Assembly (NCBI GenBank): GCA_024407875.1
Contig: JAKSVT010000004.1
Location: 6,982 to 70,981, forward strand
Direction: 5' to 3'
Source of the DNA: Alphaproteobacteria bacterium
GTDB lineage: Bacteria; Pseudomonadota; Alphaproteobacteria; CAAGCB01; CAG-977
Length of the DNA: 64,000 bases
Part shown: piece by piece, positions 3,270 through 55,942 of the stretch
Numbering within the stretch: the first letter of the stretch is position 1
Layout: every line of letters starts with the position of its first letter
Made by a program: the position numbers and the translations under genes
Notes under the pieces: generated by a model
Told to the model about the DNA's origin: nothing
Database searches by the model: none
What the model saw: only the letters and a program-made list of their open reading frames with translations

Positions 3270-4139
3270 ATGGATTATTCTGATACTAAAATCGCATATA
3301 AAATTTCAATAGTAAGTATCATAGTTAATTTTCTACTTACTATTTTTAAATTATTTGCAGGAATAGTTGGCAAATCAGGAGCAATGATTTCAGATGCAAT
3401 ACATTCTGCATCTGATGTTTTTAGTACATTCATTGTTATGATTGGAATACATTTATCCAAAAAAGAGTGCGATGACGATCATGAATACGGACATGAACGT
3501 TATGAATGTGTAGCCGCAATCATTCTTGCTACTTTACTTGGCTATACAGGCATTGAAATTGGTTGGTCAGGATACAAAAAAATTGTTTCCAATGAAGAAA
3601 TTGTTATTCCAAAAACAATAGCTTTAATTTCAGCTTTAATTTCCATTTTAACTAAAGAAGCAATGTTTTGGTATACAAGACATGGAGCAAAAAAAATTAA
3701 TTCTTCTGCGTTAATGGCAGATGCTTGGCATCATAGATCTGATGCATTATCATCAATTGGTGCTTTTATCGGTATCTTAGGAGCAAGAATTGGTTATCCT
3801 ATACTAGAGCCAATCGCAACAATATTAATTAGCTTTTGTATATTATACGCAACATATGAAATCTTTATAGATGCCACAAATAAAATGGTTGATAAATCAT
3901 GTGATAAAGAAACTGAAGAAAAAATTCGTCAAATTACTTTAAATCAAGAAGGGGTAATATCTATTGATTGGTTATCTACTAGATTATTTGGCTCAAAAAT
4001 TTATGTAGATATAGAGTTTTCTGCTAAAGGAGATTTAACTTTAACTGAAGCTCATGGTATAGCTGCAAAAGTTCATGATGAAATTGAAACTCAAATGCCT
4101 TATGTAAAGCATTGTATGGTACATGTAAATCCAAAATAG
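3270..4139 (+). CDS. Cation diffusion facilitator (CDF) family metal efflux transporter
   Basis: TM helices carry 'HSASD' and 'WHHRSDALSS' metal-binding motifs; a cytoplasmic C-domain is present. Confidence 0.8.
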   Translation: MDYSDTKIAYKISIVSIIVNFLLTIFKLFAGIVGKSGAMISDAIHSASDVFSTFIVMIGIHLSKKECDDDHEYGHERYECVAAIILATLLGYTGIEIGWSGYKKIVSNEEIVIPKTIALISALISILTKEAMFWYTRHGAKKINSSALMADAWHHRSDALSSIGAFIGILGARIGYPILEPIATILISFCILYATYEIFIDATNKMVDKSCDKETEEKIRQITLNQEGVISIDWLSTRLFGSKIYVDIEFSAKGDLTLTEAHGIAAKVHDEIETQMPYVKHCMVHVNPK

Positions 4140-4142
4140 CTT

Positions 4143-4691
4143 TTATACTTTTTTACTATCTCTAGCAGAATATGGACAGCCACAATAATTTTGTGAATAC
4201 ATTTTAGTTTCTTTTATTAAATATTGACGACGTTGTTCCAAACCACCTTTACGCCAATTTGTTAAATCGTATTCTACACCAGTTTTAATAGAGGCTTTTG
4301 TAGCTTCTTCATTTACTTGGTCTAAGTTCTTATACCTTGAAATTCCAAGAACAGAAGACACCTTATCAAACCCATGTTCTTTTGCATATTCCATTGTTTT
4401 TTCTAATCTATAATAAAAACATTTAGAACAGCGTTTCCCTCTTTCAGGTTCATTTTCTAAACCTTTAATCACGTTTTCCCAATCTTCGTGGTTATAAGAT
4501 AATTCTATAACGTCTACATCGTATTTTTTACAAAAATTAATCTGCTCATTTTTTCTTTTTTCATATTCTTCAAATGGAAAAATATTAGGATTAAAAAACA
4601 TAACAGCAAATTCTACTTTATCTATTGCTAATTTTTCAATTACAGCACAAGAACAAGGTGCACAACACGACAATAATAGCAATTTACTCAT
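4143..4691 (-). CDS. queH: Epoxyqueuosine reductase QueH (DUF208)
   Basis: N-terminal 'LLLLSCCAPCS' cysteine cluster and further Cys motifs ('CSKC', 'CGCPY'); 182 aa. Confidence 0.75.
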   Translation of the reverse strand: MSKLLLLSCCAPCSCAVIEKLAIDKVEFAVMFFNPNIFPFEEYEKRKNEQINFCKKYDVDVIELSYNHEDWENVIKGLENEPERGKRCSKCFYYRLEKTMEYAKEHGFDKVSSVLGISRYKNLDQVNEEATKASIKTGVEYDLTNWRKGGLEQRRQYLIKETKMYSQNYCGCPYSARDSKKV

Positions 4692-4703
4692 TACAAATTT
4701 CTT

Positions 4704-5471
4704 TTAAATAAATTGTTCGTCCATAATACGATCTTGCAAATTATACTTTACATCAAACAACAAATGTATTTCTACAGATTTATCCATTAAAACTTTAACT
4801 TCACTAACTTGTTTTAATTCCATATAATCAGCCACCGCATTAACTGGACGTTTATAAGGTTGATGTATTTTAAACAACACCTCTGTATCCTGTGTCAAAA
4901 TAGATCCTTGCCATCTTCTTGGCCTAAATGGACTTACAGGTGTTAATGCTAGAACATTTGAATTTAAAGGTAATACAGGTCCTCTAACAGAAAAGTTATA
5001 TGCCGTGCTTCCTGCTGGAGTTGAAATCAATACACCATCACATATTAAGTCTGCTAAACGTTCTATACCATTTATTGAAATAGAAATATCAGCTGCTTGA
5101 GAACTATGTCTAAACAATGAAACATCATTTAAAGCTAAAGCTTCCATTTCCTTATTAGCTGAAATAGCTGTCATTTTAAGAGGATGCAAAATAGCAGATT
5201 GAGAATTTTCTAAATCTTCCAAAAATCTATCAGGATTATAATTGTTTAATAAAAAACCTACATTACCTAAGTTTAATCCATAAAAAGGAATCCCTTTTGT
5301 AATATACTTATGCATTGTTTTTAATAAAAAGCCATCGCCACCAAGAGGAACAATTACATCTGCTTTAGATGCACTATATTGTCCAAAAGTTTTTGTTAAA
5401 TAAGCAAATGCATCTTGAGCTTTTTCTGTTTTATCGGCCGTAAAGTAGAGCTTCTTCATATATTTTTCCAT
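4704..5471 (-). CDS. nadK: NAD+ kinase
   Basis: 'GGDGFLL' and 'NDV..' motifs; 255 aa. Confidence 0.8.
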   Translation of the reverse strand: MEKYMKKLYFTADKTEKAQDAFAYLTKTFGQYSASKADVIVPLGGDGFLLKTMHKYITKGIPFYGLNLGNVGFLLNNYNPDRFLEDLENSQSAILHPLKMTAISANKEMEALALNDVSLFRHSSQAADISISINGIERLADLICDGVLISTPAGSTAYNFSVRGPVLPLNSNVLALTPVSPFRPRRWQGSILTQDTEVLFKIHQPYKRPVNAVADYMELKQVSEVKVLMDKSVEIHLLFDVKYNLQDRIMDEQFI

Positions 5472-41417: not shown

Positions 41418-42524
41418 CTAAATTGCGTATAAAACCAGCTCTTGTGAATACCTACTATGAGCTCGAATGTAAAATTTATAGGTATCATCAACATGGTAAA
41501 TAAACTTTGGAATTGTAATCAAATCTTCACGTTTATGATAAACACAAATTGTTAAAATAGGATGGTTCTTTTTAATGAGAGTCCGTGCTCCATTTAAAGC
41601 ATCTAATTCCACACCTTCAATATCCATTTTTATAAAATCAACAGGTTCTTTAATAAATTCATCCATTTTAACAACATCTATAGTTGTTTCTCCATTTTCA
41701 ACAATACCTGAAGATGTTGAATTCATCGAAAAATGCAAGGTTTCATTTTTTGCACCTACACCTTTTTTTAGACAACTAATTTTATCGAACCCTTCAAGAT
41801 TTTTTCTCATTTTTTCATAATTTAATATATCAGGTTCAAACAATATTCCTTTTCCATCATATTTCTTTCCAACTGCATTCTCATAATTTTTCACAAAAGA
41901 TAGAAAAGAATCCCCATCATAAGCACCACAATCAACAAAGCATTTTATATTATTAAAAGGAATTATATCCTTATCAAAATATTGTTCTTTTCTCCAAACA
42001 TCTTTTAATTTATTAAAATCCCCTGTTAATTTCTGTTCAAAATAACGTGTCATAGACAATTTAGAATAATCATCTTCTAACCTGTCATAAATCCAATCAA
42101 ATTCACTTTTATTATTTTGATAGAAATTCCAATCAAAAATTGGTCCTATACTCCAAAGAAAGAACAAATCCTTCTCGATAACTTGAACATTTTTTCTGTT
42201 ACTTCTTAAAGAACAAATTTTTTGTGTAGGTAAATGAAAACAACTAACAATAATCATATTGTTATTAGCATCTTCTATTTCATCTAAAGAAACAACTTCA
42301 TGATTATTAACAATTTCCCCATTTTTGTAGTATTCTTTATCAACACAAAAAGCTTTATATTCATATTTATTGTTATCTAAAAACCTTGCAAGTCTTAACC
42401 CCATTTCTGCACAGCCGTATATATAAACATTTCCATTATTTTTTAAATGTTTTTCTATGGTTTCTATTAAGCTGTTTTTTTCTTTTAATAAATTAAACAT
42501 TTTCTTCCTTATTAGATGGAACAT
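41418..42524 (-). CDS. FkbM-family methyltransferase
   Basis: 'FVDCGAYDGDS' SAM-binding motif; 368 aa. Confidence 0.6.
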   Translation of the reverse strand: MFHLIRKKMFNLLKEKNSLIETIEKHLKNNGNVYIYGCAEMGLRLARFLDNNKYEYKAFCVDKEYYKNGEIVNNHEVVSLDEIEDANNNMIIVSCFHLPTQKICSLRSNRKNVQVIEKDLFFLWSIGPIFDWNFYQNNKSEFDWIYDRLEDDYSKLSMTRYFEQKLTGDFNKLKDVWRKEQYFDKDIIPFNNIKCFVDCGAYDGDSFLSFVKNYENAVGKKYDGKGILFEPDILNYEKMRKNLEGFDKISCLKKGVGAKNETLHFSMNSTSSGIVENGETTIDVVKMDEFIKEPVDFIKMDIEGVELDALNGARTLIKKNHPILTICVYHKREDLITIPKFIYHVDDTYKFYIRAHSRYSQELVLYAI

Positions 42525-42652
42525 TTTTTATTATTATATTAACGATATGTAATTGATCGCAATAGGTCAAGACTAAATGATATCAATCTAGATATAACAA
42601 ATACATTGGCTACAAACAATAACCAACATCAACAAACAACAATTTCATAGAT

Positions 42653-42728
42653 TGGCGATCCTATCGGGATTCGAACCCGAGTTAACGCCGTGAGAGGGCG
42701 TTGTCCTAGACCACTAGACGATAGGATC
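42653..42728 (-). tRNA. tRNA-Glu (anticodon CUC as read)
   Basis: The reverse complement folds as a cloverleaf: acceptor GATCCTA/TAGGATC, D-arm 'GTCTAGTGGTCTAGGAC', anticodon stem ACGCC/GGCGT with loop CTCTCAC, T-arm GGGTTCGAATCCC, and an encoded CCA. Confidence 0.75.
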
Positions 42729-42740
42729 ATTTTAAACTCA

Positions 42741-42817
42741 TGGTGCACCCGGCGGGATTCGAACCCACGGCCCTCGGCTTCGGAAACCGATACTCTATCC
42801 AGCTGAGCTACGAGTGC
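42741..42817 (-). tRNA. tRNA-Arg (anticodon CCG)
   Basis: Reverse complement: acceptor GCACTCG/CGGGTGC, anticodon loop TTCCGAA, T-arm GTGGGTTCGAATCCCGC, and an encoded CCA. Confidence 0.75.
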
Positions 42818-42954
42818 CAAGCACACTTAGATTTAAAATACTTATTTTTTAACAAAATACAATCAAAAAAGATTATCTTGTTAAAATATTTACAAAAAAA
42901 TCATAAAAAACTCTTGACGAAATACCTAAAACAATATAAATATTCTTTTGTATT

Positions 42955-43029
42955 TGGAGCGTAGCCAAGTGGTAAGGCAAAGGACTTTGACTCCTTCATG
43001 CGCTGGTTCGAATCCAGCCGCTCCAGCCA
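42955..43029 (+). tRNA. tRNA-Gln (anticodon UUG)
   Basis: Acceptor TGGAGCG/CGCTCCA with the U1–A72 pair typical of Gln, anticodon stem AAGGA/TCCTT with loop CTTTGAC, T-arm GCTGGTTCGAATCCAGC, and an encoded CCA. Confidence 0.8.
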
Positions 43030-43038
43030 GAGTCACAA

Positions 43039-43062
43039 AGTCGTCAGAAATGGCGACTTTTT
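43039..43062 (+). terminator. Rho-independent terminator after tRNA-Gln
   Basis: AGTCGTC-agaaatg-GCGACT stem-loop followed by TTTTT. Confidence 0.65.
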
Positions 43063-43342
43063 CTTTTATTTTCAAGCATTTAATCCGGTTCGAAGATGAA
43101 TATATTTTGAAGGCTAGTTTTGCTGTATCTTCGAACTTGCTTCTATATTTTTCAATAACTTAGCTAATTGCAGCCTTTTTTAAGCATAAAAATGAACCTC
43201 TGCTAATTTTTGCAAAGGTTGAACTTCTGACATAGCTATATGAAAGGTTGTTTAGCAATATTGTTAATAAAAACATTTGCATTATTTACTATGTCAAAAT
43301 ATGTCGTAACCTAAATGTATGTTTTATATAGGATGAATATTA

Positions 43343-44253
43343 TGGCATATGAAAAGACTTTTAATTTGTTAGATTTGGCGATTTGGATGCAATCAACTCG
43401 CGAAGGAGTTAGTTTGTCAGATATTATGAGTCGCTTTCAAGTATCAAGAAGAACTGCCGAACGTATGCGAGATATGATATTAAGTCGATTTCCTCAAGTT
43501 GTTGAAGAAATCGGTGAAAATAATTCAAAACGTTGGTATATCCCGCAAGGCACATTAAAAGACTTTATTCAATTTTCGGCTGATGATATTGCTTGTCTTA
43601 ATTTAGCCAAAGATGCCTTAATTAAAGAAAAACTATCTGATAAAGCCGACCAATTAAATGCTATTATTGAAAAAATTACAGCTTCCATTAAGCCAAATAC
43701 TTTATTAAAAATAGAACCTGATGCAGAAGTTTTGTTAGAAGCTCAAGGTTTTGCTCGCCGTGTCGGTCCAAAAATTAAAATTGATACTCAATATTTGGAA
43801 ACAATTAAAGAGGCTATTTTATCTAGCAAAGAACTAAAAATTAAGCATAATAACAAAACTCAAATTGTAGCTCCTTATGGTTTCTTATATGGTAATAAGC
43901 CTTATTTGGTAGCTTATTCCAATAATGCAAAAGAGTTCAGATATTATGCTTTACACAAGTTAAATTCCGTTCAGCTGACAAATAATCATTTTATTAATAC
44001 TTTTTCATTAAACGAATTTACCAAAGATTGTTTTGGCGTTTATAAAGAAAAACCTTTTGAAGTTGAATGGTTATTTAATGCTGATGTAGCTAAAGATGTT
44101 GAAAAATATGAATTTCATCCATCTCAACAAATGATAAAAAATAAAGACGGTACTTTAACCGTAAAGTTTTTCGCAGGTGGTCAAAAAGAAATGGATTGGC
44201 ATCTTTATACCTGGGGTGATAAAGTTAAAGTAATAAAACCAGAAAGGAAATAA
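43343..44253 (+). CDS. HTH–WYL–WCX transcriptional regulator (YafY/BrxR/CapW family)
   Basis: N-terminal winged HTH ('SLSDIMSRFQVSRRTAERMRDMI'), central WYL-like domain ('APYGFLYGNKPYLVAY...RYYALHKL'), and C-terminal WCX with the 'HPSQ' hallmark. Start placed at ATG 43343 with an AGGA RBS. Confidence 0.7.
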
Positions 44254-44255
44254 AA

Positions 44256-44819
44256 ATGACGCAAGAAGAAAATAAATTAAAGTACATTGAGAAAGATACT
44301 AAAATTGTAATTTTAGGAACATTTCCCTCTGAAGCATCAAGAGATACTTTCTTTTATCACAAATCAACCAATCAGTTTTGGACCATATTAAGTAAGCTTT
44401 ATAATTGTAATGATATTTGTCATTTACAAAAGAATGAAACATCTAAAGACAAAGAAGAACAATTAATTGAAAACAGAAAAGCTTTTCTTAAAAAGCACCA
44501 AATTGGTTTATGGGATGTTATTGATAAATGTGACATAGATAAAAGCAAAGATTCCTCTATCAAAAATCCGACTTATAATGATTTAGCTTCATTAAAAACA
44601 GAATGTCCAAAGTTAGAGCACATTTATTTTAGCAGTAAAAAAGCTTTTCAATTTTATCAAAAATATTTGCGAGACAATTTAAAAGATTATGCAAGTAAAA
44701 TTTGGTTAGAAAATGTTGTTATTAAAGAAGCATTACCATCTCCAAGTTCTGCTAATGCTCGTTTGACATTAGAACAAAAGCAAAAAAGATGGGGAGAGTT
44801 GTTAGGCTTATTTAATTAA
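44256..44819 (+). CDS. UDG-superfamily DNA glycosylase-like protein (Mug/TDG-like)
   Basis: Motif A 'ILGTFPSEAS...FFYHKSTNQFW' (compare Mug 'GINPG...FAHPANRFW'). Motif B 'LPSPSSANARL' (compare 'LPNPSGLSR'). Lies 2 nt downstream of the WYL regulator. Confidence 0.5.
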   Translation: MTQEENKLKYIEKDTKIVILGTFPSEASRDTFFYHKSTNQFWTILSKLYNCNDICHLQKNETSKDKEEQLIENRKAFLKKHQIGLWDVIDKCDIDKSKDSSIKNPTYNDLASLKTECPKLEHIYFSSKKAFQFYQKYLRDNLKDYASKIWLENVVIKEALPSPSSANARLTLEQKQKRWGELLGLFN

Positions 44820-44913
44820 AAGCAATCTTCTTCTAAATCGCTAAATTTTCCTATATCTCGGTCAAATAAGCATTTTATCCATCCGCAATTGCCATTATTG
44901 TTTTTAGCGATTA

Positions 44914-45795
44914 TTATTTCACATTTATTTTCTTGTTCTGTTCTAGGCAATCTTCTTGCCATTCTTTATAACGTTTTTCAAAATGCTCTTTTGTTTCTCT
45001 TTTATACTGCTTTGGTTCTTTATCATACATATAATAACTTTCTCTATATAAAAATAAGAGTTTATCAGCATATGGAACGATATTACGATACCCGTCTTTA
45101 ATATCACTATTAATTGGTATTTTACATTGTCTTTGCTCTAGGTTTCGGTTTAGTTGAGAAAGTATAAGTATTGGAACATCTAATTTTTCTGCAATACTTT
45201 TAATATCTTGCATAAATTTTTTATAAGCTTGATTTGACTTATCTTCTGAATAAAGTGATAAAAGTTGCAAACAATCTATAACGACAAGCCCGAATTTATT
45301 TCTATTTGCAAATGCATATATCTTATCTTTTATATCACTAATAGAGCTTATTTGATTGCATAGATATATTGGCAATTGATTTATTTCATTACCGGTAAGT
45401 GCTATTTTTTCAAATTGTTTATAGTTTTCTATGTTGTGTCTTAATTCATATAAAGGAATTCCGGAAGCTAAACTAACAAACCGTTGCATTATATTCTTAT
45501 TATTGCATTCAAAATCAAAATATAAAACGTGTTTTATTTCTGAATTGTTTTGTTCTGCTTCTTCTTTGAATTTTTGTGCCACCTGATAAACACAGTTTAT
45601 TGCAAATGCCGTTTTTCCCATTGCAGGTCGTCCCGCTATAAGAACAACATCACCACCTCGAATATATCCTAGTCTTTCATCTAATCTATCTATACCTGTT
45701 GACAATCCGAGAGGCTCACTGTTCATTTGATAACGATATTCAACTTCTTTAATATATTCAAGAAATGCATCAGATATATGTAATGTTTTATCCAT
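44914..45795 (-). CDS. DnaB-family replicative helicase, C-terminal (RecA-like) domain only
   Basis: 'GLSTGIDRLDERLGYIRGGDVVLIAGRPAMGKTAF' (Walker A), 'VIDCLQLL' and 'ILSQLNRNLEQR...NSDIKDGYRNIVPYADKLLFLYRE'. The N-terminal DnaB domain is absent. Confidence 0.65.
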   Translation of the reverse strand: MDKTLHISDAFLEYIKEVEYRYQMNSEPLGLSTGIDRLDERLGYIRGGDVVLIAGRPAMGKTAFAINCVYQVAQKFKEEAEQNNSEIKHVLYFDFECNNKNIMQRFVSLASGIPLYELRHNIENYKQFEKIALTGNEINQLPIYLCNQISSISDIKDKIYAFANRNKFGLVVIDCLQLLSLYSEDKSNQAYKKFMQDIKSIAEKLDVPILILSQLNRNLEQRQCKIPINSDIKDGYRNIVPYADKLLFLYRESYYMYDKEPKQYKRETKEHFEKRYKEWQEDCLEQNKKINVK

Positions 45796-46032
45796 TTTAA
45801 TACTCCATACTAGTTTTTGTTGTATGGATATTAAACTAAAGATACGCCATATTTTGACAGATACAAATATACCAATATTGCAGATAGGTGAAATTAGTTA
45901 AAGAACAGGTTTTATTAGCAAACTAACATATTGTCATTAATAGTGGTAGGTTATAATTTACTTTTCTTAATGAAACATATATCAAAATCTAAATAGCTTA
46001 TATGGGGCGAAAGTACAATTTTCTATTTTACT

Positions 46033-46878
46033 TTATTTATCGCTAGTATTCTGATTAAGTATCGATTCAAAGAATCTATCAAATTCAAAAATTTCTTCTG
46101 CTTTCACAATTACACCAATATTGATAGGGAAACTGGTTACTGGCCTTGGAATACACGGGATGTAATCAAATTTTAAAATTCCTTCAGCATTGTATTCAAG
46201 CCCCCCATACAAAACTCCAACAAATTTAATATTATTACCTAAATATGCACCACTTTTATCAGTATACAATCCTTCGTTTAAAACAAACACAGGAGAACCA
46301 CTGCATCCGTGAAAACTTGCAATATCAATTAAAAATTCTTTTTTCCCATTGTAATTATTTTTAATATGCGTAGCAGTAATACCTTTACGAATAATTGGTT
46401 TGTGATTATATACATCTGAAAATCCTATCGGATATCCAACCATAACAATATTTTCAATAGCTGTCATGTTTTCTATTTCTTCTTGCGAAGGAATTAAACT
46501 CATATCCAATGGAATGTAAAAGGTGTGAATACCTTGTTTTATCACATTATCAAGTGCATCTGTTATTGGTAAGCAACATAAATCTACCGATAAACTTGGA
46601 TGTTCTATCCAAGGACACCCATCATATGTAAATGGAGCTGTTTTTGTATTACAGATATTTCCATCTGCATCGCATGTACATAACTCAAATTGTGTCATTA
46701 CACTATTCTTTACTACGTGTTTATTTGTAATAACGGCGGCTATATATTTACTATTATCTTTACTATTAAAATGGACAATAAAACCCGTACCTAAACTAAC
46801 TTTATGATTTTTATCAGTGCATTTAAGCAGCACAGTAGAATAAGTAATTTTTTCTGATAAACTCATTTGTTCAATCAT
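46033..46878 (-). CDS. Trypsin-like (S1/chymotrypsin-fold) serine protease, no signal peptide
   Basis: 'GTGFIV...AVITNKHVV' (His), 'HGCSGSPVFV' (Ser nucleophile); 281 aa. Confidence 0.5.
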   Translation of the reverse strand: MIEQMSLSEKITYSTVLLKCTDKNHKVSLGTGFIVHFNSKDNSKYIAAVITNKHVVKNSVMTQFELCTCDADGNICNTKTAPFTYDGCPWIEHPSLSVDLCCLPITDALDNVIKQGIHTFYIPLDMSLIPSQEEIENMTAIENIVMVGYPIGFSDVYNHKPIIRKGITATHIKNNYNGKKEFLIDIASFHGCSGSPVFVLNEGLYTDKSGAYLGNNIKFVGVLYGGLEYNAEGILKFDYIPCIPRPVTSFPINIGVIVKAEEIFEFDRFFESILNQNTSDK

Positions 46879-47306: not shown

Positions 47307-48605
47307 TTAGTTTTTTCCATAATTATCAAGTTTGATTTTGTTACGTATATTTTCATTATCAATATTTTCTACATATTTAATTACATTATCTGGTGCACCA
47401 TAATCACTTGCCATTTTACCTTTTTCAGTGTAAGCATTATATTCAAATTTTGATAATAATCTATCAAATCCCGTTACATCATCAATTTCGCATTTTAAAG
47501 TCTGAGATATCCTATATTTATAGATTAGATTGAATATCCCTAAATATTTTACAAGGTGATATTTAAGTTTATTATAGATAAAATCGGCTGTCGTTCTTAT
47601 AGCTCTATCATAATCCAGATTTTTCTTCTCTATATAATATTTAACTTCGCCATAAAATCCTGCTTTAAGATAACAACTTACCATATAAACAAGAACAGAG
47701 AACTCTTTACCTTCGTAAGTGGAAGTCTTATTATTGATTAATGAGTATATCGGCGAATCTTTTGCAATATCTTTTATTGTGTTCAGAAATATTTGGAAGC
47801 CATCAAAATTTATAGAATCGTACATAGTAGAATTTACACAATTTTCAATTTTAGCTAATTCCTCAGATGTTAATCCCATAATTTTATGAAATAGCGAAAC
47901 CTTATTTTGCTTTGAGATTGTCTTAAATTGAGTAAGTATGATACCAGGAAGTAAAGACGACAATCTATTTATTTCTTTTTTTCTTTCTAAATCTTGTTCC
48001 GATAAGTAATTATCTCTTGTATAATCTAGATCTATATCAGTTTTTGCAGACGTTTTATCATAATTTTTATGCTCTAAAATGGCGTCGTTTGCATATAACA
48101 CATCCATAAAATTATTTTGCAGAACAATAACTCTTCCTGAATAATGATGAAGAAATCTACCAGCACGACCCGCAATATTTTTTGCATCAAATGGTTTTAA
48201 TGGTTTAGGAGACTTTTTACATAGCGTTACAAGAATATTTTTTGCAGAGGTGTTTACTCCTTCCGTTATGGTTGTAGTTGTTGTTAAAACTTGTAATTCT
48301 CCTTGATTAAAAAATTTAATAATTTCTTTTTGAATATATTTTGGAACCAAGCCATTGTGTATACCCACACCTTTTTTCAGGGCTTTATATAATAACCAAT
48401 CTTCTGAAAATGTACTCTTTATATGTTCTAAAAATAATGCGTATTGACTATCATAATCGTGAAGCTCTGGTAAAATATCTAATAAATATTTGGCATAAGA
48501 CCTTGTTCCTTTTTTATCAGCACAATAGACAATACATTTTTCCCCATTATTAAGTAAGGTTTTTATAATTGATATAAATTTATCTGTTTTATTATTCTTA
48601 CACAT
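47307..48605 (-). pseudogene. SF2 helicase C-terminal fragment (RecA2 domain plus C-terminal extension); N-terminal ATPase domain missing
   Basis: Motifs IV–VI 'LTTTTTITEGVNTSAKNILV' and 'AGRAGR', but no Walker A/DEAD anywhere upstream. Only 75 bp separate it from the divergent neighbour. Confidence 0.5.
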
Positions 48606-49262: not shown

Positions 49263-50348
49263 ATGACTTTTTTACCAAAATATACCATTACCAAAGATAT
49301 TTTAGCTGATTTAACTAAGATTGAAGCTGTTAAAAATTCGTTTGATGATAAACCTTTGTCACCGGTTTTGTTATCTTCGCTGCATAAAACTGCCAAAATT
49401 GCACAAAGTCACTACTCTACGCAAATTGAAGGTAATCATTTATCATTAAAACAAGTAGAAACGACGCTTTATTCTGCCAACAAATCGATTAAAGAATATC
49501 AAGGTCATGACGAAAAAGAAGTCAAAGCTTATTACAATGCTATCAATTATATGGAAAAAGTTCTTGAAAATGGTGGAGAATTTGATGAAAAGCTGGTGCA
49601 AAAAATCCATTCACTAATTGAAGGCAGTAAAAAAATTATTCCATATCGTAATGAACAAAATGCAATATACGACACATCTGACGGCTCACTTGTCTATCTG
49701 CCACCGGAAACTAAAGATGTTCCTGTTATGATGAAAGATTTGGTTGCTTGGGTAAATGATAACATTGATAAATTGCCAACACCTATTGTAGCAGGTTTAT
49801 TTCATTATCAGTTTGTGACTATCCATCCTTATTTTGACGGTAATGGTAGAACAGCACGCTTGATGACAAGTTATATTATGCGTAAATTCGGTTATGGCTT
49901 AAAAGGTATTTATTCTTTGGAAGAGTATTATGCTAAAAATCTCAAAGATTATTATCAAGCACTGGCAACACATCCGCATCACAACTATTATTTTGGCCGG
50001 AACGTTGCTGATTTAACTCCTTGGCTTGAATATTTTATTAAAGGTGTGGCGACAGCATTTGAAAATATCAATATTAAAGCACAAGAACAGCAGAACACAG
50101 GTATTAAAACGGATATATCACCAATGTTGCGTAAACTGGATATTAAACAACGCAAAATTTTAGAATTATTTGTGGAGTTTGATCAAATAACCTCAAATCA
50201 AGCAGGTGAATATTTGAATTTATCATCACAATCAGCCAGACTTTTATTAAACAGATGGGTAGAAGAAGGATTTTTAATAATAGCAAATAAAGCGCGTAAA
50301 AACAGAACTTATGGTTTAGCACAAGAATATGAACAGCTGATATCATAA
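49263..50348 (+). CDS. Fic-family protein (AMPylase-type) with C-terminal winged HTH
   Basis: Canonical Fic motif 'HPYFDGNGRTARL'; 361 aa. Confidence 0.8.
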   Translation: MTFLPKYTITKDILADLTKIEAVKNSFDDKPLSPVLLSSLHKTAKIAQSHYSTQIEGNHLSLKQVETTLYSANKSIKEYQGHDEKEVKAYYNAINYMEKVLENGGEFDEKLVQKIHSLIEGSKKIIPYRNEQNAIYDTSDGSLVYLPPETKDVPVMMKDLVAWVNDNIDKLPTPIVAGLFHYQFVTIHPYFDGNGRTARLMTSYIMRKFGYGLKGIYSLEEYYAKNLKDYYQALATHPHHNYYFGRNVADLTPWLEYFIKGVATAFENINIKAQEQQNTGIKTDISPMLRKLDIKQRKILELFVEFDQITSNQAGEYLNLSSQSARLLLNRWVEEGFLIIANKARKNRTYGLAQEYEQLIS

Positions 50349-50728: not shown

Positions 50729-51757
50729 ATGTGCGTTTTAATGGCTAACAGTTATATTTTAAGCCTGTCTGACAATGTTCGCCGTAGTCTTGAATATAAC
50801 TGGAGCCAAGGCAAATGGCAGAGTTTGGCACCTATCGGATATCTCAATCAAAAAGATAAACATGGCAAATCCATTATAGTGATTGATGAAGAACGAGCAC
50901 CTATTATCAAGCGTTTGTTTGAAGAATATGCTACCGGTCTGCATACCGCACAAAGTTTATTGATTTTGGCTTGTAAATTAGGACTTACCGCTAAAGAAAC
51001 TTATTCAGAAGAGACACCTCAAAGAAAAAGATTTATCAGCCGTACCAAGATTTATGAAATTCTGCGTAATCCTTTTTATGCCGGAATTATGTGTGTCAAA
51101 GGAAAATTGATGCCACATATCCACGGCAAAATTATTGATAAAAAACTTTATGACCAAGTGCAGCAAATTATGGATGCTAAAGGTATGGAAAGAGAAATAC
51201 ATAAACATCAGCAAAAATACAAGGTTAAAAAGTTTGCATTTCGTGGAATTGTTTTGTGTGGCAGATGTCATCACTTAATGTCTCCGGATTGCAAAACCAA
51301 GACAAACGGCAAGCAATATACTTATTTAAGATGTTACAACAAATGCGGTCAAATGCCGATTAATGAAACCATATTGCTTAAACAGCTTGAAACAGAAGTA
51401 TTTGCTAAATTTTTCATACCACCGCAAGATTTTAATAAGATAAAACAATCTCTTATCAATCATTATAAACGACCATCACATGCAAAAACAGAGCTTTTGA
51501 ATAAACTGGTTAACCTGATTTGCAATATGCCAACCATTATGCAACAAGCAGATGCCGGCACCAAAAATGAAATATTGGTTATTCTGCTTCAAAATTTCAC
51601 CTTAAATGAGCAAACACTCTCTTATTCTCTTCGCTCGCCGTTTGATAAGCTGATTGAGACAGATTATCACAATTGGAAAGATATTATTATACATAATTTC
51701 AAAGACTTATCGTCGATTGGATATAATCTTAAAGCCATCAACTTAAAGGAGGATTAA
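50729..51757 (+). pseudogene. Large serine recombinase remnant lacking the N-terminal catalytic (resolvase) domain
   Basis: Paralog of 52169..53353, starting at the equivalent 'M.VLMA.NY..SLS.NV.RSL..NW..GKWQ' point. Has recombinase domain and Zn ribbon ('CGRCHHLM...LRCYNKCG'), but no 'ARVSS' catalytic domain upstream. Confidence 0.55.
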
Positions 51758-51760
51758 ACT

Positions 51761-52165
51761 ATGCGTAAAAAATACCAGAAGAAACTCATTGAAAAGTGTA
51801 CCGAAGCCATAACATTTGCGCGTGTTTCTAGCGAAAAACAGGAACGTGGCGCTTCTATTGATGCTCAAAAAGAATTGATCTACGATTATTGTATGGAGAA
51901 AAATTTCAAAATCATTAAAGAGTTTGAAATTACCGAGAGTACAACTCGCGGCGATCGTGTAAAATATAATGAAATGCTTGATTTTATTCGTTCTCGCAAC
52001 AAAAAGACCGCTATTGTTGTAAACTGCGTTGATAGACTTCAAAGAAGTGATGAAGATAATCCGGCACTTAATAAACTGCGCCGAGAAGGCAAAATTGAAA
52101 TACACTTTATGAAAGAGCATATTATCTTAGATGAAACTTCTCCGGTACAAGATATTTTTGCATAG
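51761..52165 (+). CDS. Serine recombinase N-terminal catalytic domain (ends at an in-frame TAG)
   Basis: 'ITFARVSSEKQ' (catalytic Ser) and 'VVNCVDRLQRS'. The ORF ends 'DIFA*' at TAG 52163–52165, in frame with the next ORF. Confidence 0.6.
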   Translation: MRKKYQKKLIEKCTEAITFARVSSEKQERGASIDAQKELIYDYCMEKNFKIIKEFEITESTTRGDRVKYNEMLDFIRSRNKKTAIVVNCVDRLQRSDEDNPALNKLRREGKIEIHFMKEHIILDETSPVQDIFA

Positions 52166-52168
52166 AAA

Positions 52169-53353
52169 ATGAATGTGCTAATGGCTGGCAACTACACGGA
52201 TTCATTATCATATAACGTAAAAAGAAGTTTGGTTAAAAACTGGAATTCTGGTAAATGGCAAGGCATGGCACCTCTCGGATATTTAAATCGCCATACAGAT
52301 GATGACAACAACGAAGCCATTATTATTGTTGATCCTGTTCGCGGACCGATTATCAAGCATTTATTTGAAGAATTTGCAACCGGTAAACATACTTTGAAAA
52401 CATTGTGGTATTTATCCAAAGAATTAGGTTTATATACCAAAAATAAAAAGAAAAAAGGCTGCTTTGTGAGCAGAAACACGCTTTATGATGTTCTGACCAA
52501 TCCGTTTTATCATGGTTTGATGTGTATCAAAGGCGAGTTTTACAATCATATTTATGAGCCGCTGATAAGCAAAGAATTATTTGACCGTGTACAAGCCATT
52601 TTGACCGGAAACGGCAATCATAATCGCAATAACACCACAGAATATGCCAAAACACCTTACATTTTCCGCGGTTTGATACATTGTAAAGAATGCGGTTGTT
52701 TGATTACGCCGGAAAAGAAAATCAAAAAGAACGGTAGCACGTATATTTATTTGCGTTGCGGTCATCCTTGTAAAGAATGTCATCAAGGAATAGTTAACGA
52801 AAATGTGATTATTGAGCAGCTGAAAAAGGAAGTTATGGATAAAATATCATTACCGCCGAAATTGCAGGAAATCGTCAAAGAAAAACTAACTCAAGAATTA
52901 AATGATACATCGGCTTTTAATAAGACTATGAAAACCAATATCACGAATAAACTGAACGAATTGAAAGTTAAAGAAGACAATTTACTTGATTTCTACCTGG
53001 AAGGAAAGCTGCCACAAGCAACTTATGAAGCCAAACAAGAACAGATTGCCAATCAGCGAGCTGAACTTGAGCAGACAGCCGAAAAATACAAAAATATTGA
53101 TGCCGATATGAAGAAAAGAGTTGTGCAGGTTATGGCTTTGGCAAATAATATCTCTAAGTTGTTTGATATGGCAACTCCAACCAGAAGAAACGAGTTATTA
53201 CAATTACTTATTTCAAACTGTCAACTTAATGATTCAAAATTAGAATATACCGTAAACGCACCATTTAACTGGTTAATGGATAGCAATAATTATACCGAAT
53301 GGACCACCGTCGTCATTGAGCATTTAGATGACTTTGAATGCGTGAAGGTGTAA
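52169..53353 (+). CDS. Large serine recombinase C-terminal portion (recombinase domain, Zn ribbon, coiled coil)
   Basis: Same frame as 51761..52165, separated by TAG+AAA. 'CKECGCLITP...LRCGHPCKEC' ribbon and a C-terminal coiled coil. Confidence 0.6.
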   Translation: MNVLMAGNYTDSLSYNVKRSLVKNWNSGKWQGMAPLGYLNRHTDDDNNEAIIIVDPVRGPIIKHLFEEFATGKHTLKTLWYLSKELGLYTKNKKKKGCFVSRNTLYDVLTNPFYHGLMCIKGEFYNHIYEPLISKELFDRVQAILTGNGNHNRNNTTEYAKTPYIFRGLIHCKECGCLITPEKKIKKNGSTYIYLRCGHPCKECHQGIVNENVIIEQLKKEVMDKISLPPKLQEIVKEKLTQELNDTSAFNKTMKTNITNKLNELKVKEDNLLDFYLEGKLPQATYEAKQEQIANQRAELEQTAEKYKNIDADMKKRVVQVMALANNISKLFDMATPTRRNELLQLLISNCQLNDSKLEYTVNAPFNWLMDSNNYTEWTTVVIEHLDDFECVKV

Positions 53354-53434: not shown

Positions 53435-55858
53435 TTGTACATGAAGATTATAAAAGAAATTACAAAATTGAAAAACTTTGCATCTTTTGAAGATTACGAA
53501 TGGGACTGCAAAGCATTAAATGATTTTGAAAAATATAATCTATTTTATGGGTTAAACGGTAGTGGAAAAACGACTTTATCTCGTTTATTCTATTTTCTTA
53601 ATGAAGGTATGATTTGTCATGAGGGGCACTATGATAGTGAATTTGGTATATTGCTTAATGACAACTCTTTAATTACACAATATGATAATAATGCATTAAA
53701 AGGAAAAATATGTGTTTTTAATGACTTATTTATTGAAAATTATTTAGATTTTAAGACCGTTAAATCAAAAAAAATTGTATATTTTTCTGCTGGAAAAGAT
53801 GCAAAAATGTTATTAGAATACAAAAAAGACTTAGAGAGAAGAAAACAAATTATAGCTAATAAACTCCAAAAAGTAAAAGATGAGTATTCACAACTTGATA
53901 TTAGTAATAAAAAAATTTATGGAGATTTTCAAGACAGCGTAGTAAATACTTTAGATATTAATAAAAATAAATTCAAAATTACTAACGCTATAAGCACATT
54001 AGATGTAATTCTTAAAAATCAATCTACTATATTCCTTTCAAATCAAGAAATTGATAACCAAAGAAATTTATATGCACAAACCCAACTCCCTATATTGGAT
54101 TATTCGTATTTGAAATCATATCCGTTAACTGTAGATGATATAGAAAAACTATCAGATTTATTAAAAGAAAAAATTGAAAGAAAAAATCTCTCCGATTTAC
54201 GGGATGAAATAGCTGATTGGCTAAATAATGGTATTACCTACCAAAATGAGCAATCTAACGGGAAATGTATTTTTTGCAATCAACCATTACATCCAACTAT
54301 CTGGCAAGAAAGAATCAAACAAATATTTCATATGACTGAAAAAGATGCCATATTTCAAATTAAAGAACAAACAATTAATCGGTATATTTCTGAAATACAA
54401 AATATACTCATGTCATCATTCAACATAAAAGAAAATATTAATCAATTTTACCCAAAATATAAAGTTGCATTCTCTAGTATTATAGGATCTTTACAATCTG
54501 AGTTCGACAACCTTAAAAATTTATTAGAAAAATTGATAAGTTATTTAACTGAAAAATTGAAAGATACTAAACGTAACATTGATATATCTGAGATTATGAT
54601 GGAAAATAATCTCAGTTTATATAATAATCTTGTTGTGTCTATTAATAATATAAATAGAACATTAGAAAAATTTGAAGATTTATTTACTAACAATAACCAA
54701 CATAGTCGAGTAATATCAAGTGAACAGACTGAGGCTTTTAATAATATATGTAGTTACTGTGCAACCTCTTTTGTCAAAGAATTATTAACTAACCATGATG
54801 CATTAAAAAGAAATGAAGCAGCCTCCAATAAATATATTAGTTTATTTAATAAAATAGAAACGAAATTAAAGCAGAAAGCACAAGAACTAGCAAATTCAGA
54901 AGCTCCTATTAACGAAATAAATGATATAATTCAACAAATAATGGGAAAAAATAAATTTTACTTTGATAAAGATGGTGTCGATGGGCAATATAGAATAAAA
55001 CGGATTGAACATAATAAAATAAATGAAGCCATAAATCTTAGCGAAGGTGAAAGAAATATTATATCTTTTGCTTTTTTTATCACATATATTAAGGAAAAGA
55101 TTGAAGATAGCATCATTGTAATTGATGATCCTATCTCTTCACTAGATAGTTCTTATTTTTTCAACATATTGAATCTTCTGTTAAGTTCTAGATTAATAAG
55201 AAATAATAAGTTAAAACAAATATTTATTTTAACCCATAATTTTTATTTTTTCAAAAAGCTAAGAAAAAATATTAAAGGACAGAAATGTCCACAATTAGAT
55301 GCAAATGGTAATATTATACGAGATTCAAATGGGAAAGAGTTAATTAAACTTTGTAAATATTCAAAAAAACAATCTCTCGAAAATAAGCAAATATACCAAA
55401 TTGTAAAAAGTAATTACGCATCATCAATTCAGCCACCATCTGACTACTTACGCAAATACAACAGCGAATATCTCACACTAATTGAACAATTCATAAAATA
55501 TAAAAATAATTTAGATATTACATCATATCAATATGATGAAGGTATTTCTGTTCTAAATACAATGAGAAGAATTTTAGAAACCTTTCTCGAAAACAAATAC
55601 CCTACATCAGGAGGAGAAGGCTTTAATGCAAAATTCCAAGAAACAATCACTAAATTACACAGAGATGACTTATTATATTTAGCAGACATTCTTAATATCG
55701 GTAGTCATGGTGATAACCCTTTCCCCTCTCTTAACTATACTAAATATGAAGATTTCTCAAAGTTGACTGATGATTATCTTGATTATATTAAGAGCCTAGA
55801 TATTGATTTCTATAGCAGTGTATTTGAGCCATTATTATCTATACATATGAAACCATAG
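53435..55858 (+). CDS. PrrC/RloC-like ABC ATPase (AAA_13) with CxxC zinc-hook; candidate anticodon nuclease / abortive-infection protein
   Basis: Walker A 'GLNGSGKTT' and a long coiled coil carrying 'CIFCNQ'. ABC signature 'LSEGER' and Walker B/D-loop 'IIVIDDPISSLDS'. The ~240-aa C-terminal domain ('RRILE...GSHG') is unassigned. Confidence 0.5.
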   Translation: MYMKIIKEITKLKNFASFEDYEWDCKALNDFEKYNLFYGLNGSGKTTLSRLFYFLNEGMICHEGHYDSEFGILLNDNSLITQYDNNALKGKICVFNDLFIENYLDFKTVKSKKIVYFSAGKDAKMLLEYKKDLERRKQIIANKLQKVKDEYSQLDISNKKIYGDFQDSVVNTLDINKNKFKITNAISTLDVILKNQSTIFLSNQEIDNQRNLYAQTQLPILDYSYLKSYPLTVDDIEKLSDLLKEKIERKNLSDLRDEIADWLNNGITYQNEQSNGKCIFCNQPLHPTIWQERIKQIFHMTEKDAIFQIKEQTINRYISEIQNILMSSFNIKENINQFYPKYKVAFSSIIGSLQSEFDNLKNLLEKLISYLTEKLKDTKRNIDISEIMMENNLSLYNNLVVSINNINRTLEKFEDLFTNNNQHSRVISSEQTEAFNNICSYCATSFVKELLTNHDALKRNEAASNKYISLFNKIETKLKQKAQELANSEAPINEINDIIQQIMGKNKFYFDKDGVDGQYRIKRIEHNKINEAINLSEGERNIISFAFFITYIKEKIEDSIIVIDDPISSLDSSYFFNILNLLLSSRLIRNNKLKQIFILTHNFYFFKKLRKNIKGQKCPQLDANGNIIRDSNGKELIKLCKYSKKQSLENKQIYQIVKSNYASSIQPPSDYLRKYNSEYLTLIEQFIKYKNNLDITSYQYDEGISVLNTMRRILETFLENKYPTSGGEGFNAKFQETITKLHRDDLLYLADILNIGSHGDNPFPSLNYTKYEDFSKLTDDYLDYIKSLDIDFYSSVFEPLLSIHMKP

Positions 55859-55896: not shown

Positions 55897-55942
55897 TCAC
55901 TCCAGCCAAATTTTAAAGTCGTCAGAAATGGCAACTTTTTTT
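55897..55942 (+). repeat. Third copy of the tRNA-Gln 3'-end repeat plus (degenerate) hairpin; right boundary of island
   Basis: 'CACTCCAGCCAAA', then AAGTCGTCAGAAATGGCAACT (one G-to-A change relative to the tRNA-proximal hairpin) and T7. Confidence 0.55.

Follow-up and report, generated by a model that had tools for sequence, protein, structure and literature searches.

Does a DNA glycosylase gene that directly follows a WYL-domain regulator, at a tRNA locus rich in defence genes, belong to an anti-phage system or to DNA repair? [quoted passage not shown] A first-pass annotation considered the glycosylase a candidate defence or anti-modified-base module and unlikely to be a housekeeping repair gene. 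We favour a different reading, to which we assign a probability slightly better than even (roughly 0.55): the three genes form a compact, chromosomally inherited repair mini-regulon that is induced by DNA damage and controlled by a homologue of the Caulobacter regulator DriD. We prefer this reading because the UDG persists in housekeeping contexts where the regulator has been deleted or has decayed, because the regulator is strongly conserved, because conserved DriD-type boxes stand at the two promoters of the unit with fixed spacing to the -10 hexamers, and because the WYL-UDG pair is present throughout the clade while distant DriD homologues also have boxed DnaB_C genes.

In this mini-regulon, a dimeric regulator with winged helix-turn-helix (wHTH), WYL and WCX domains would recognise two CGxC-N7-GxCG operators, one for its own bicistronic operon and one for the convergent helicase gene. 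By analogy with DriD, single-stranded DNA (ssDNA) arising from damage or replication stress would bind the WYL/WCX pocket, upon which the regulator would engage its operators and recruit RNA polymerase to promoters without a -35 element. Once induced, the glycosylase would remove hypoxanthine, which is deaminated adenine and a particular risk in a genome of 30% G+C, and base-excision repair could begin. The helicase would presumably help to process or restart damaged forks. We infer activation rather than repression, as well as the role given to the helicase.

The regulator and the glycosylase

The regulator gene directly precedes the gene of the 187-aa protein, as first annotated, and the UDG open reading frame (ORF) begins 2 nt past the regulator stop codon. 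The longest ORF at the regulator locus (43315-44253, + strand) has a 312-aa translation. Its start is likely ATG 43342, from which MAYEK aligns with the DriD N-terminus (MRHEK) and which has an AGGA ribosome-binding site 8 nt upstream; position 43343, given earlier as the start, is 1 nt off and out of frame. The UDG gene is translationally coupled to the regulator gene and the pair is an operon. The convergent helicase gene, which belongs to the unit as its third member, contains the DnaB C-terminal (RecA-fold) helicase domain alone and resembles phage and island DnaB-like helicases (PHROG 19 and 243; NF040583).

The full HTH-WYL-WCX architecture described at first was borne out by Pfam, which placed WYL (30.5 bits) and WCX (26.3 bits) domains past their cut-offs and an HTH_11 domain below threshold. 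The assignment to the BrxR/CapW type was not. In a search of the PDB, Caulobacter DriD (8tp8/8tpk, 9pfq/9pfv/9pga) matched over its full length (E 1.4e-47, 33% identity), and the alignment with 8tp8/9pfq spans residues 7-310 of the 312-aa translation. A profile built from 20 regulator homologues found DriD at E 4.9e-67, whereas PafC (E 0.017) and BrxR (7qfz, E 0.034, 79 residues) matched within the WYL domain only and CapW was absent at E <= 10. The regulator and DriD have the same recognition helix, RRTAERMRD, which is near-invariant across the 20 homologues. In DriD, Arg37, Glu40 and Arg41 of this helix read the CGxC half-site (PMC10853764).

In uncultured Alphaproteobacteria, the regulator belongs to a large family that evolves slowly and comprises 703 clusters at E <= 1e-10, many of them at 53-65% identity. 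Inside the window's clade, which consists of uncultured gut Alphaproteobacteria, the identity rises to 77-98%. A search of viral contigs with the regulator found no relatives.

The regulator shares with Caulobacter crescentus DriD the complete layout of wHTH, three-helix bundle, WYL and WCX domains, as well as the base-reading helix. Both have targets in DNA metabolism, among them a replisome-type gene here and dnaG in Caulobacter. The two differ in the reach of their regulons. Caulobacter DriD controls an SOS-independent DNA-damage regulon of didA, bapE, recJ, dnaG, recA and CCNA_03891/01149, whereas the predicted targets here are local, namely the cotranscribed family-6 UDG and the DnaB helicase without its N-terminal domain, and no didA or bapE was seen. 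With the BrxR/CapW repressors, the regulator has in common its domain architecture, its place at the 5' end of an operon, the likely sensing of a nucleic-acid signal and the frequent proximity to variable, defence-rich DNA. Unlike them, it shows no family-level sequence relationship, its operon partner is not a recognised defence gene, and its operators and promoters have activator geometry.

The 187-aa protein contains both UDG-superfamily motif blocks verbatim as originally noted (GTFPSEASRDTFFYHKSTNQFW and LPSPSSANARL). It had been called Mug/TDG-like, but it belongs to family 6. Besides Pfam UDG (33.2 bits, past the 24.3 cut-off), it matches NCBIfam TIGR04274, the DNA-deoxyinosine glycosylase family of hypoxanthine-DNA glycosylases (HDG), over residues 11-179 with 100.4 bits against an equivalog cut-off of 80. 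Its sole PDB sequence match (phmmer) is the Methanosarcina family-6 protein 2l3f (E 4.5e-12), with no Mug/TDG match at E <= 10. The fold prediction that had been proposed as a check confirmed a UDG fold: the AlphaFold model (39 homologues) has the UDG alpha/beta fold, with a predicted local distance difference test (pLDDT) score of 92.7 and a predicted template-modelling (TM) score of 0.89. Foldseek ranked 2l3f first (E 2.7e-10, TM 0.68/0.78), Mug/TDG as the second-best fold (E 4e-5 to 1e-3, TM 0.5-0.6) and the family-4 structure 4zby 48th (E 0.18). Motif 1 reads GTFPS, not the G-I-N-P-G of Mug/TDG with its catalytic Asn.

We judged conservation from an alignment of 76 family members. The invariant or near-invariant family-6 residues G21, P24, Y34, N39, F41, W42, D87, C92, D99, S162, S164, A166 and N167 are all kept, and with them the G-x-x-P-S...Y...N-x-F-W and L-P-S-x-S-x-A-N motifs of family 6, which includes the Methanosarcina barkeri HDG. 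The protein departs from the family by NG->SS at 126-127 and T->P at 163. Residues 56-64 and 142-157 are insertions specific to the clade, and the protein is longer than the family median of 169 aa. The UDG of the clade is a small offshoot, matched by three of 2427 cluster representatives at E <= 1e-30, and the only family branch found linked to a WYL regulator. Family 6 excises hypoxanthine and is without uracil-DNA glycosylase activity (PMC5387724, PMC8438529), and hypoxanthine is the substrate that the sequence would predict here.

The glycosylase could instead arm an inducible anti-phage system, in which the WYL regulator senses phage ssDNA or damage and the glycosylase, assisted by the helicase, excises a modified purine in a Brig- or Dag-like manner. 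We consider this unlikely. There are precedents in Brig1, Brig2 and Brig3, which are proven UDG-superfamily defence effectors (PMC11078745; bioRxiv 10.1101/2025.10.29.685425, 10.64898/2026.02.25.707755) and, like the UDG here, have the superfamily fold and are small single-domain glycosylases near defence genes. Unlike the UDG here, which is nearest to family 6 and then family 2, Brig1 has family 4 (4zby) as its reported nearest fold (PMC11078745). Furthermore, Brig1, taken from the supplement of that paper, shows no detectable similarity to the UDG (BLASTP E 1.2; hhalign probability 0.06%). The UDG had neither a PADLOC nor a PHROG hit, and a scan of viral contigs with its alignment found no relatives.

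Operators and promoters

The DriD consensus is ATACGAC-N7-GTCGTAT (PMC10853764). Operator 1, a DriD-type box with one mismatch, lies 33 nt 5' of ATG 43342. Its core, TGTCaaaatatGTCG, occupies 43292-43306 and the sole mismatch falls on the weakly read C1. Operator 1 is kept in 13 of 13 aligned related upstream regions, though the flanks diverge. Operator 2 lies 47 nt 5' of the helicase start codon. It is kept in five relatives against diverged flanks, and in four close relatives (L010, L011, L017 and L018, where L-numbers denote the compared loci) reads CGTCaaaatatG(G/A)CG, a perfect family motif. In a sister subclade, the helicase gene is co-directional and keeps its own box in the UDG-helicase spacer. 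The second box is therefore direct there and sits between the UDG and helicase genes, and we rejected the idea that the two boxes are the terminal inverted repeats of a transposon.

The pattern YGNC-W7-GNCR occurs exactly twice in the window, once for each transcription unit of the regulator-UDG-helicase unit, and no box was found 5' of the neighbouring defence genes. Two occurrences do not by themselves reach significance (0.68 are expected by chance, and two are reached in 16 of 100 shuffles), so the case for the operators rests on the positions of the sites and on their conservation. Every related locus has exactly these two box sites. A third perfect CGxC-N7-GxCG site (CGCC-N7-GTCG, TACGCCagtagttGTCGGA) at 63711-63729 probably arose by chance, since it lies inside an apparent coding region (- strand) at the window edge.

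As in DriD, the operators have AT-rich spacers, one of them stands in the regulator's own promoter, and the target promoters are without a -35 element and have the box at its position. In all four promoter types compared, a -10-like hexamer begins 10 nt past the end of the 19-nt box, with 9 intervening bases; the hexamers in L004, TATAAG and TATACT, have the same spacing as those in the window. A scan with the sigma-70 consensus found no promoter at either box, which is compatible with dependence on an activator and is not evidence on its own. In Caulobacter, an "optimised -35" oligo has its -35 hexamer within the box spacer (PMC13004042). Assuming a standard 17-nt spacer on the sequence of that oligo, the box-to-(-10) geometry here fits that of DriD-activated promoters. 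The Caulobacter driD-promoter box drives a divergent operon, and DriD is not autoregulated. There is no divergent gene here, and therefore box 1 most likely drives the regulator-UDG operon itself.

The same components and the same damage logic could also work in reverse, with an apo dimer on the boxes that blocks RNA polymerase until ssDNA releases it. CapW and BrxR act in this manner. We regard such an autorepressor as rather unlikely. In its favour, the regulator promoter of the sister subclade has its box in the spacer of TTGACT-16-TATATT, that is, between a perfect -35 hexamer and TATATT/TATACT at 16 nt, which would imply autorepression. The GTCGTAT half-site itself includes TAT, and defence-associated WYL regulators are ssDNA-sensing repressors (PMC11662680). 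However, just one of the four promoter types offers a good match to this alternative promoter, which in the window scores 7/12 and went unreported by the scan. [quoted passage not shown]

Table 1. Features of the regulator-UDG-helicase unit and its surroundings in the window.
Feature	Position	Strand	Basis
tRNA-Gln (UUG)	42955-43029	+	ARAGORN; Rfam tRNA 68.9 bits
att-like repeat	43021-43165	+	blastn, alignment, terminator scan
Conserved block: two box promoters flanking three genes	43254-45871	not applicable	blastn, upstream alignments
Operator 1, TATGTCaaaatatGTCGTA, DriD-type box CGxC-N7-GxCG with one mismatch	43290-43308	+	pattern search, conservation
-10-like hexamer TATGTT, regulator promoter	43318-43323	+	no -35 consensus
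DriD-family wHTH-WYL-WCX transcription regulator, 303 aa	43342-44253	+	PDB DriD match, Pfam WYL/WCX
Family-6 UDG (hypoxanthine-DNA glycosylase type), 187 aa	44256-44819	+	TIGR04274, PDB 2l3f, model
DnaB-family helicase without N-terminal domain (DnaB_C only), 293 aa	44914-45795	-	Pfam DnaB_C 5.4e-47, PDB DnaB 5e-31
-10-like hexamer TAATAT, helicase promoter	45833-45828	-	spacing to operator 2
Operator 2, TCTGTCaaaatatGGCGTA	45843-45861	-	pattern search, conservation
PDC-S45 trypsin-like protease	46033-46878	-	PADLOC, E 9e-91
HamB (Hachiman helicase) fragment	47307-48605	-	PADLOC model positions 323-756 of 767, E 4e-147
SoFic-type Fic protein	49263-50348	+	E 3e-50
Large serine recombinase remnants	50729-53353	+	ORF and domain reading
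PDC-S06 AAA_13 ATPase	53435-55858	+	E 3e-84

Distribution across genomes and the tRNA-Gln hot spot

We surveyed family-6 UDG genes in one genome per species, which gave 80 loci, 11 in the window's clade and 69 elsewhere. The WYL gene directly precedes the UDG gene in all 11 species genomes of the clade. The helicase gene adjoins in nine of them; of the remaining two, at least L024 has an AAA ATPase gene behind the same box instead. The linkage to the helicase survives an inversion between the subclades. Conversely, no WYL or DnaB_C neighbour was found at any of the 69 loci outside the clade (Dysgonomonas, Clostridia, Methanoregula and others), where the neighbours are a housekeeping mix. The expected association of such glycosylases with WYL regulators thus holds within the clade and at none of these 69 loci.

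Some loci have a UDG without its regulator. In L005 (340-410), the WYL ORF is cleanly deleted and the box promoter is fused to the UDG gene, with the left half-site mutated to TCTC, while in L012 (5815-5996) the last 60 codons of the WYL gene remain and a TGG codon has become TGA. Both loci keep an intact UDG after the loss of the regulator. L001 and L014 have the UDG alone. All four loci are housekeeping or mixed contexts, which argues against the earlier claim that this is not a housekeeping repair gene, as do the housekeeping neighbours of the outside homologues and the lack of PADLOC hits, viral-contig relatives and Brig1 similarity described above.

The window and the L004 genome are 79% identical in the regulator and 63% in the UDG, compared with 49.5% in Der, an essential GTPase, 30% in BamB and 28% in a YfgM-like protein. 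The helicase is 34% identical and inverted. Conservation of the regulator and UDG above that of Der may be due to strong constraint, or the WYL-UDG pair may have spread laterally. These identities do not decide on horizontal transfer of the pair, because the regulator family evolves slowly everywhere.

Among distant DriD homologues (L096-L182, 35-65% identity), the adjoining gene varies by lineage and encodes a two-domain AAA+ ATPase, PDDEXK_4, a ResIII helicase, DnaB_C, an integrase, HsdR or GmrSD_N. DriD-type boxes often lie 5' of these neighbours, for instance at L096 6000, L101 7592, L120 5567 and L138 1590. Boxed DnaB_C genes were found at at least three of the distant homologues (L117, L120, L138), and L129 has an unboxed DnaB_C gene nearby. 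This suggests a conserved DriD-like regulator with variable local targets. Proteins of 230-244 aa with faint PD-(D/E)xK hints also adjoin distant homologues; we tried those encoded downstream as hidden UDGs and rejected them (hhalign probability of about 0.2%).

Two further loci combine a WYL protein with a glycosylase. In L146, a family-6-type UDG, 38% identical to that of the window, is encoded 1.6 kb upstream of a distant DriD homologue (47% identity; genes 1798-2349 and 3929-4906), with two opposite-strand ORFs between them; this may be a second, looser WYL-UDG linkage. The other is a Brig1 homologue of Clostridium estertheticum (hit 41 in supplementary file 3 of PMC11078745), which has a WYL domain-containing protein immediately upstream and whose surroundings also include a helicase, a PD-(D/E)xK nuclease and a DUF2779 protein. 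In at least one defence setting, a WYL protein is therefore adjacent to a glycosylase.

The tRNA-Gln gene lies directly 5' of the unit, and its 3' end is part of a repeated att-like element, which past the tRNA end comprises a terminator hairpin and 100-300 nt more. The copy beside the unit is made up of the final 9 tRNA nucleotides (CTCCAGCCA) and two hairpins, of which the first is a terminator (43037-43060) and the second is long (GGTTCGAAGATG...CATCTTCGAAC). This copy has a fold z-score of -2.1, and an Rfam search over 42500-46100 found three tRNAs alone and put the element in no family. A shorter copy at about 55897-55940 is a 42-nt imperfect repeat of the tRNA 3' end and terminator hairpin. 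Three copies each are present in L010 (1387-1466, 5961-6105, 6758-7084) and L018 (818-1149, 5557-5797, 6686-6823), where they separate unrelated cassettes, among them restriction-modification, His_Phos_1, methyltransferase and the WYL-UDG-helicase block. The array looks like tandem insertions at one tRNA hot spot.

In the window, the two copies bracket 12.9 kb with the unit, defence-type genes and decayed serine-recombinase genes. Considering this gene content, the unit is here the tRNA-proximal part of a defence-rich segment, and the term tRNA-Gln island is defensible for the window. The HamB alignment starts at model position 323, and the protein therefore lacks its N-terminal half; HamA was not seen, and the fragment appears to be a decayed defence system. 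Among the recombinase remnants, ORFs 51761-52165 (resolvase domain) and 52169-53353 (recombinase and zinc ribbon) are one frame split by TAG 52163-52165, while ORF 50729-51757 has recombinase and zinc-ribbon parts without the catalytic N-terminal domain.

The bracketed segment raises the possibility of a decayed integrative element, in which the regulator would be a damage-sensing switch and the helicase would serve to replicate the element, with the glycosylase as cargo. The att-like repeats and recombinase remnants fit this idea, as do the resemblance of the helicase to those of phages and islands and the att-like repeat directly 5' of the block in L010 and L018. We nevertheless find it very unlikely. 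By blastn, close relatives share with the window only 43254-45871 (L011, L017) or 43021-45954 (L010, L018), at 91-96% identity, which is a block of 2.6-2.9 kb, and the remainder of the "island" is wholly different. L011, L017 and the whole sister subclade have the block outside any tRNA or att context, and the regulator belongs to a large, slow-evolving alphaproteobacterial family without relatives on viral contigs. The unit is therefore conserved independently of the repeat-bracketed segment.

Repair or defence

Several observations weigh against a damage-inducible repair mini-regulon. The ssDNA ligand presumed by analogy with DriD is not secured, because of the 11 DriD residues that contact ssDNA, mapped by hand onto the alignment, just three are identical in the regulator (Y192, R204, Y240) and three conservative (R176K, W206Y, R288K), so that about half are kept; the other five are changed (Y168H, S172 to a gap, R178Q, R189N, R207A). 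The clade-specific insertions and the NG->SS change could alter the substrate of the UDG. To these is added the sister-subclade promoter with its autorepressor-like layout. The flanks of the conserved block are unrelated among L010, L011, L017 and L018, which is how accessory cassettes behave, and the block abuts defence-type genes in four of the five close relatives. In the window these are PDC-S45, SoFic and the HamB fragment; L010 has restriction-modification systems, L017 has Fic and SIR2-TPR, and L018 has DUF6119. Finally, compared with L010, L011, L017 and L018, a 5-nt duplication (GAACA, at about 44932-44943 on the - strand) frameshifts the helicase gene of the window, with the loss of about 31 conserved C-terminal residues (ENKCEIIIAKNNNG...) that are present in those relatives. 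Either a genuine lesion or a fault in the assembly could account for the frameshift. The identical 293-aa helicase ORF is present in L009, an independent Logan contig that may nevertheless stem from the same reads.

The defence-type neighbours, the variable flanks and the remodelled UDG are also what an anti-phage system would lead one to expect, as are the WYL neighbour of one Brig1 homologue and the HsdR, GmrSD, integrase and nuclease genes beside DriD homologues elsewhere. Against such a system, the operators stand just 5' of the unit's own genes and of no neighbouring defence gene, and housekeeping loci retain the UDG by itself. The pairing is not patchy but occurs in all the clade's species genomes that we found, and the sister-subclade flanks are housekeeping genes. 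The UDG lacks any PADLOC, PHROG or Brig1 similarity, the family-4 fold ranks far down, and all family-6 invariant residues, the catalytic ones among them, are kept. The more specific proposal, that a family-6 UDG remodelled by insertions and the NG->SS change and gated by a DriD-type regulator together with a helicase forms an inducible anti-phage system excising modified purines, appears improbable to us. The glycosylase-based defence module first suggested for this locus thus retains in its favour the defence-rich borders and the clade-specific changes in the UDG, while the balance favours repair. We consider the nearby defence genes to be explained by the position of the unit at a tRNA-Gln integration hot spot, with no sign of a shared function.

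If the unit did serve defence, anti-phage immunity would gain a glycosylase family and a type of regulation that are both new, in what would be the first transcriptionally gated defence by a family-6-derived glycosylase. In that case, the DriD-like regulators of Alphaproteobacteria, with their variable neighbours (AAA+ ATPase, PD-(D/E)xK nuclease, DnaB_C, UDG), would form a general platform of "damage-gated effectors".

If it is the repair mini-regulon that we favour, the locus is a caution for defence-island mining: a repair unit, too, can consist of a WYL regulator and a glycosylase that lie near defence genes at a tRNA hot spot. It would provide the first regulatory context for a family-6 UDG and make hypoxanthine repair damage-inducible, and DnaB paralogues without the N-terminal domain would be recurrent DriD targets. 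The DriD pathway, so far described only in Caulobacter, would extend to uncultured low-G+C gut Alphaproteobacteria, with a predicted operator and a minimal local regulon.

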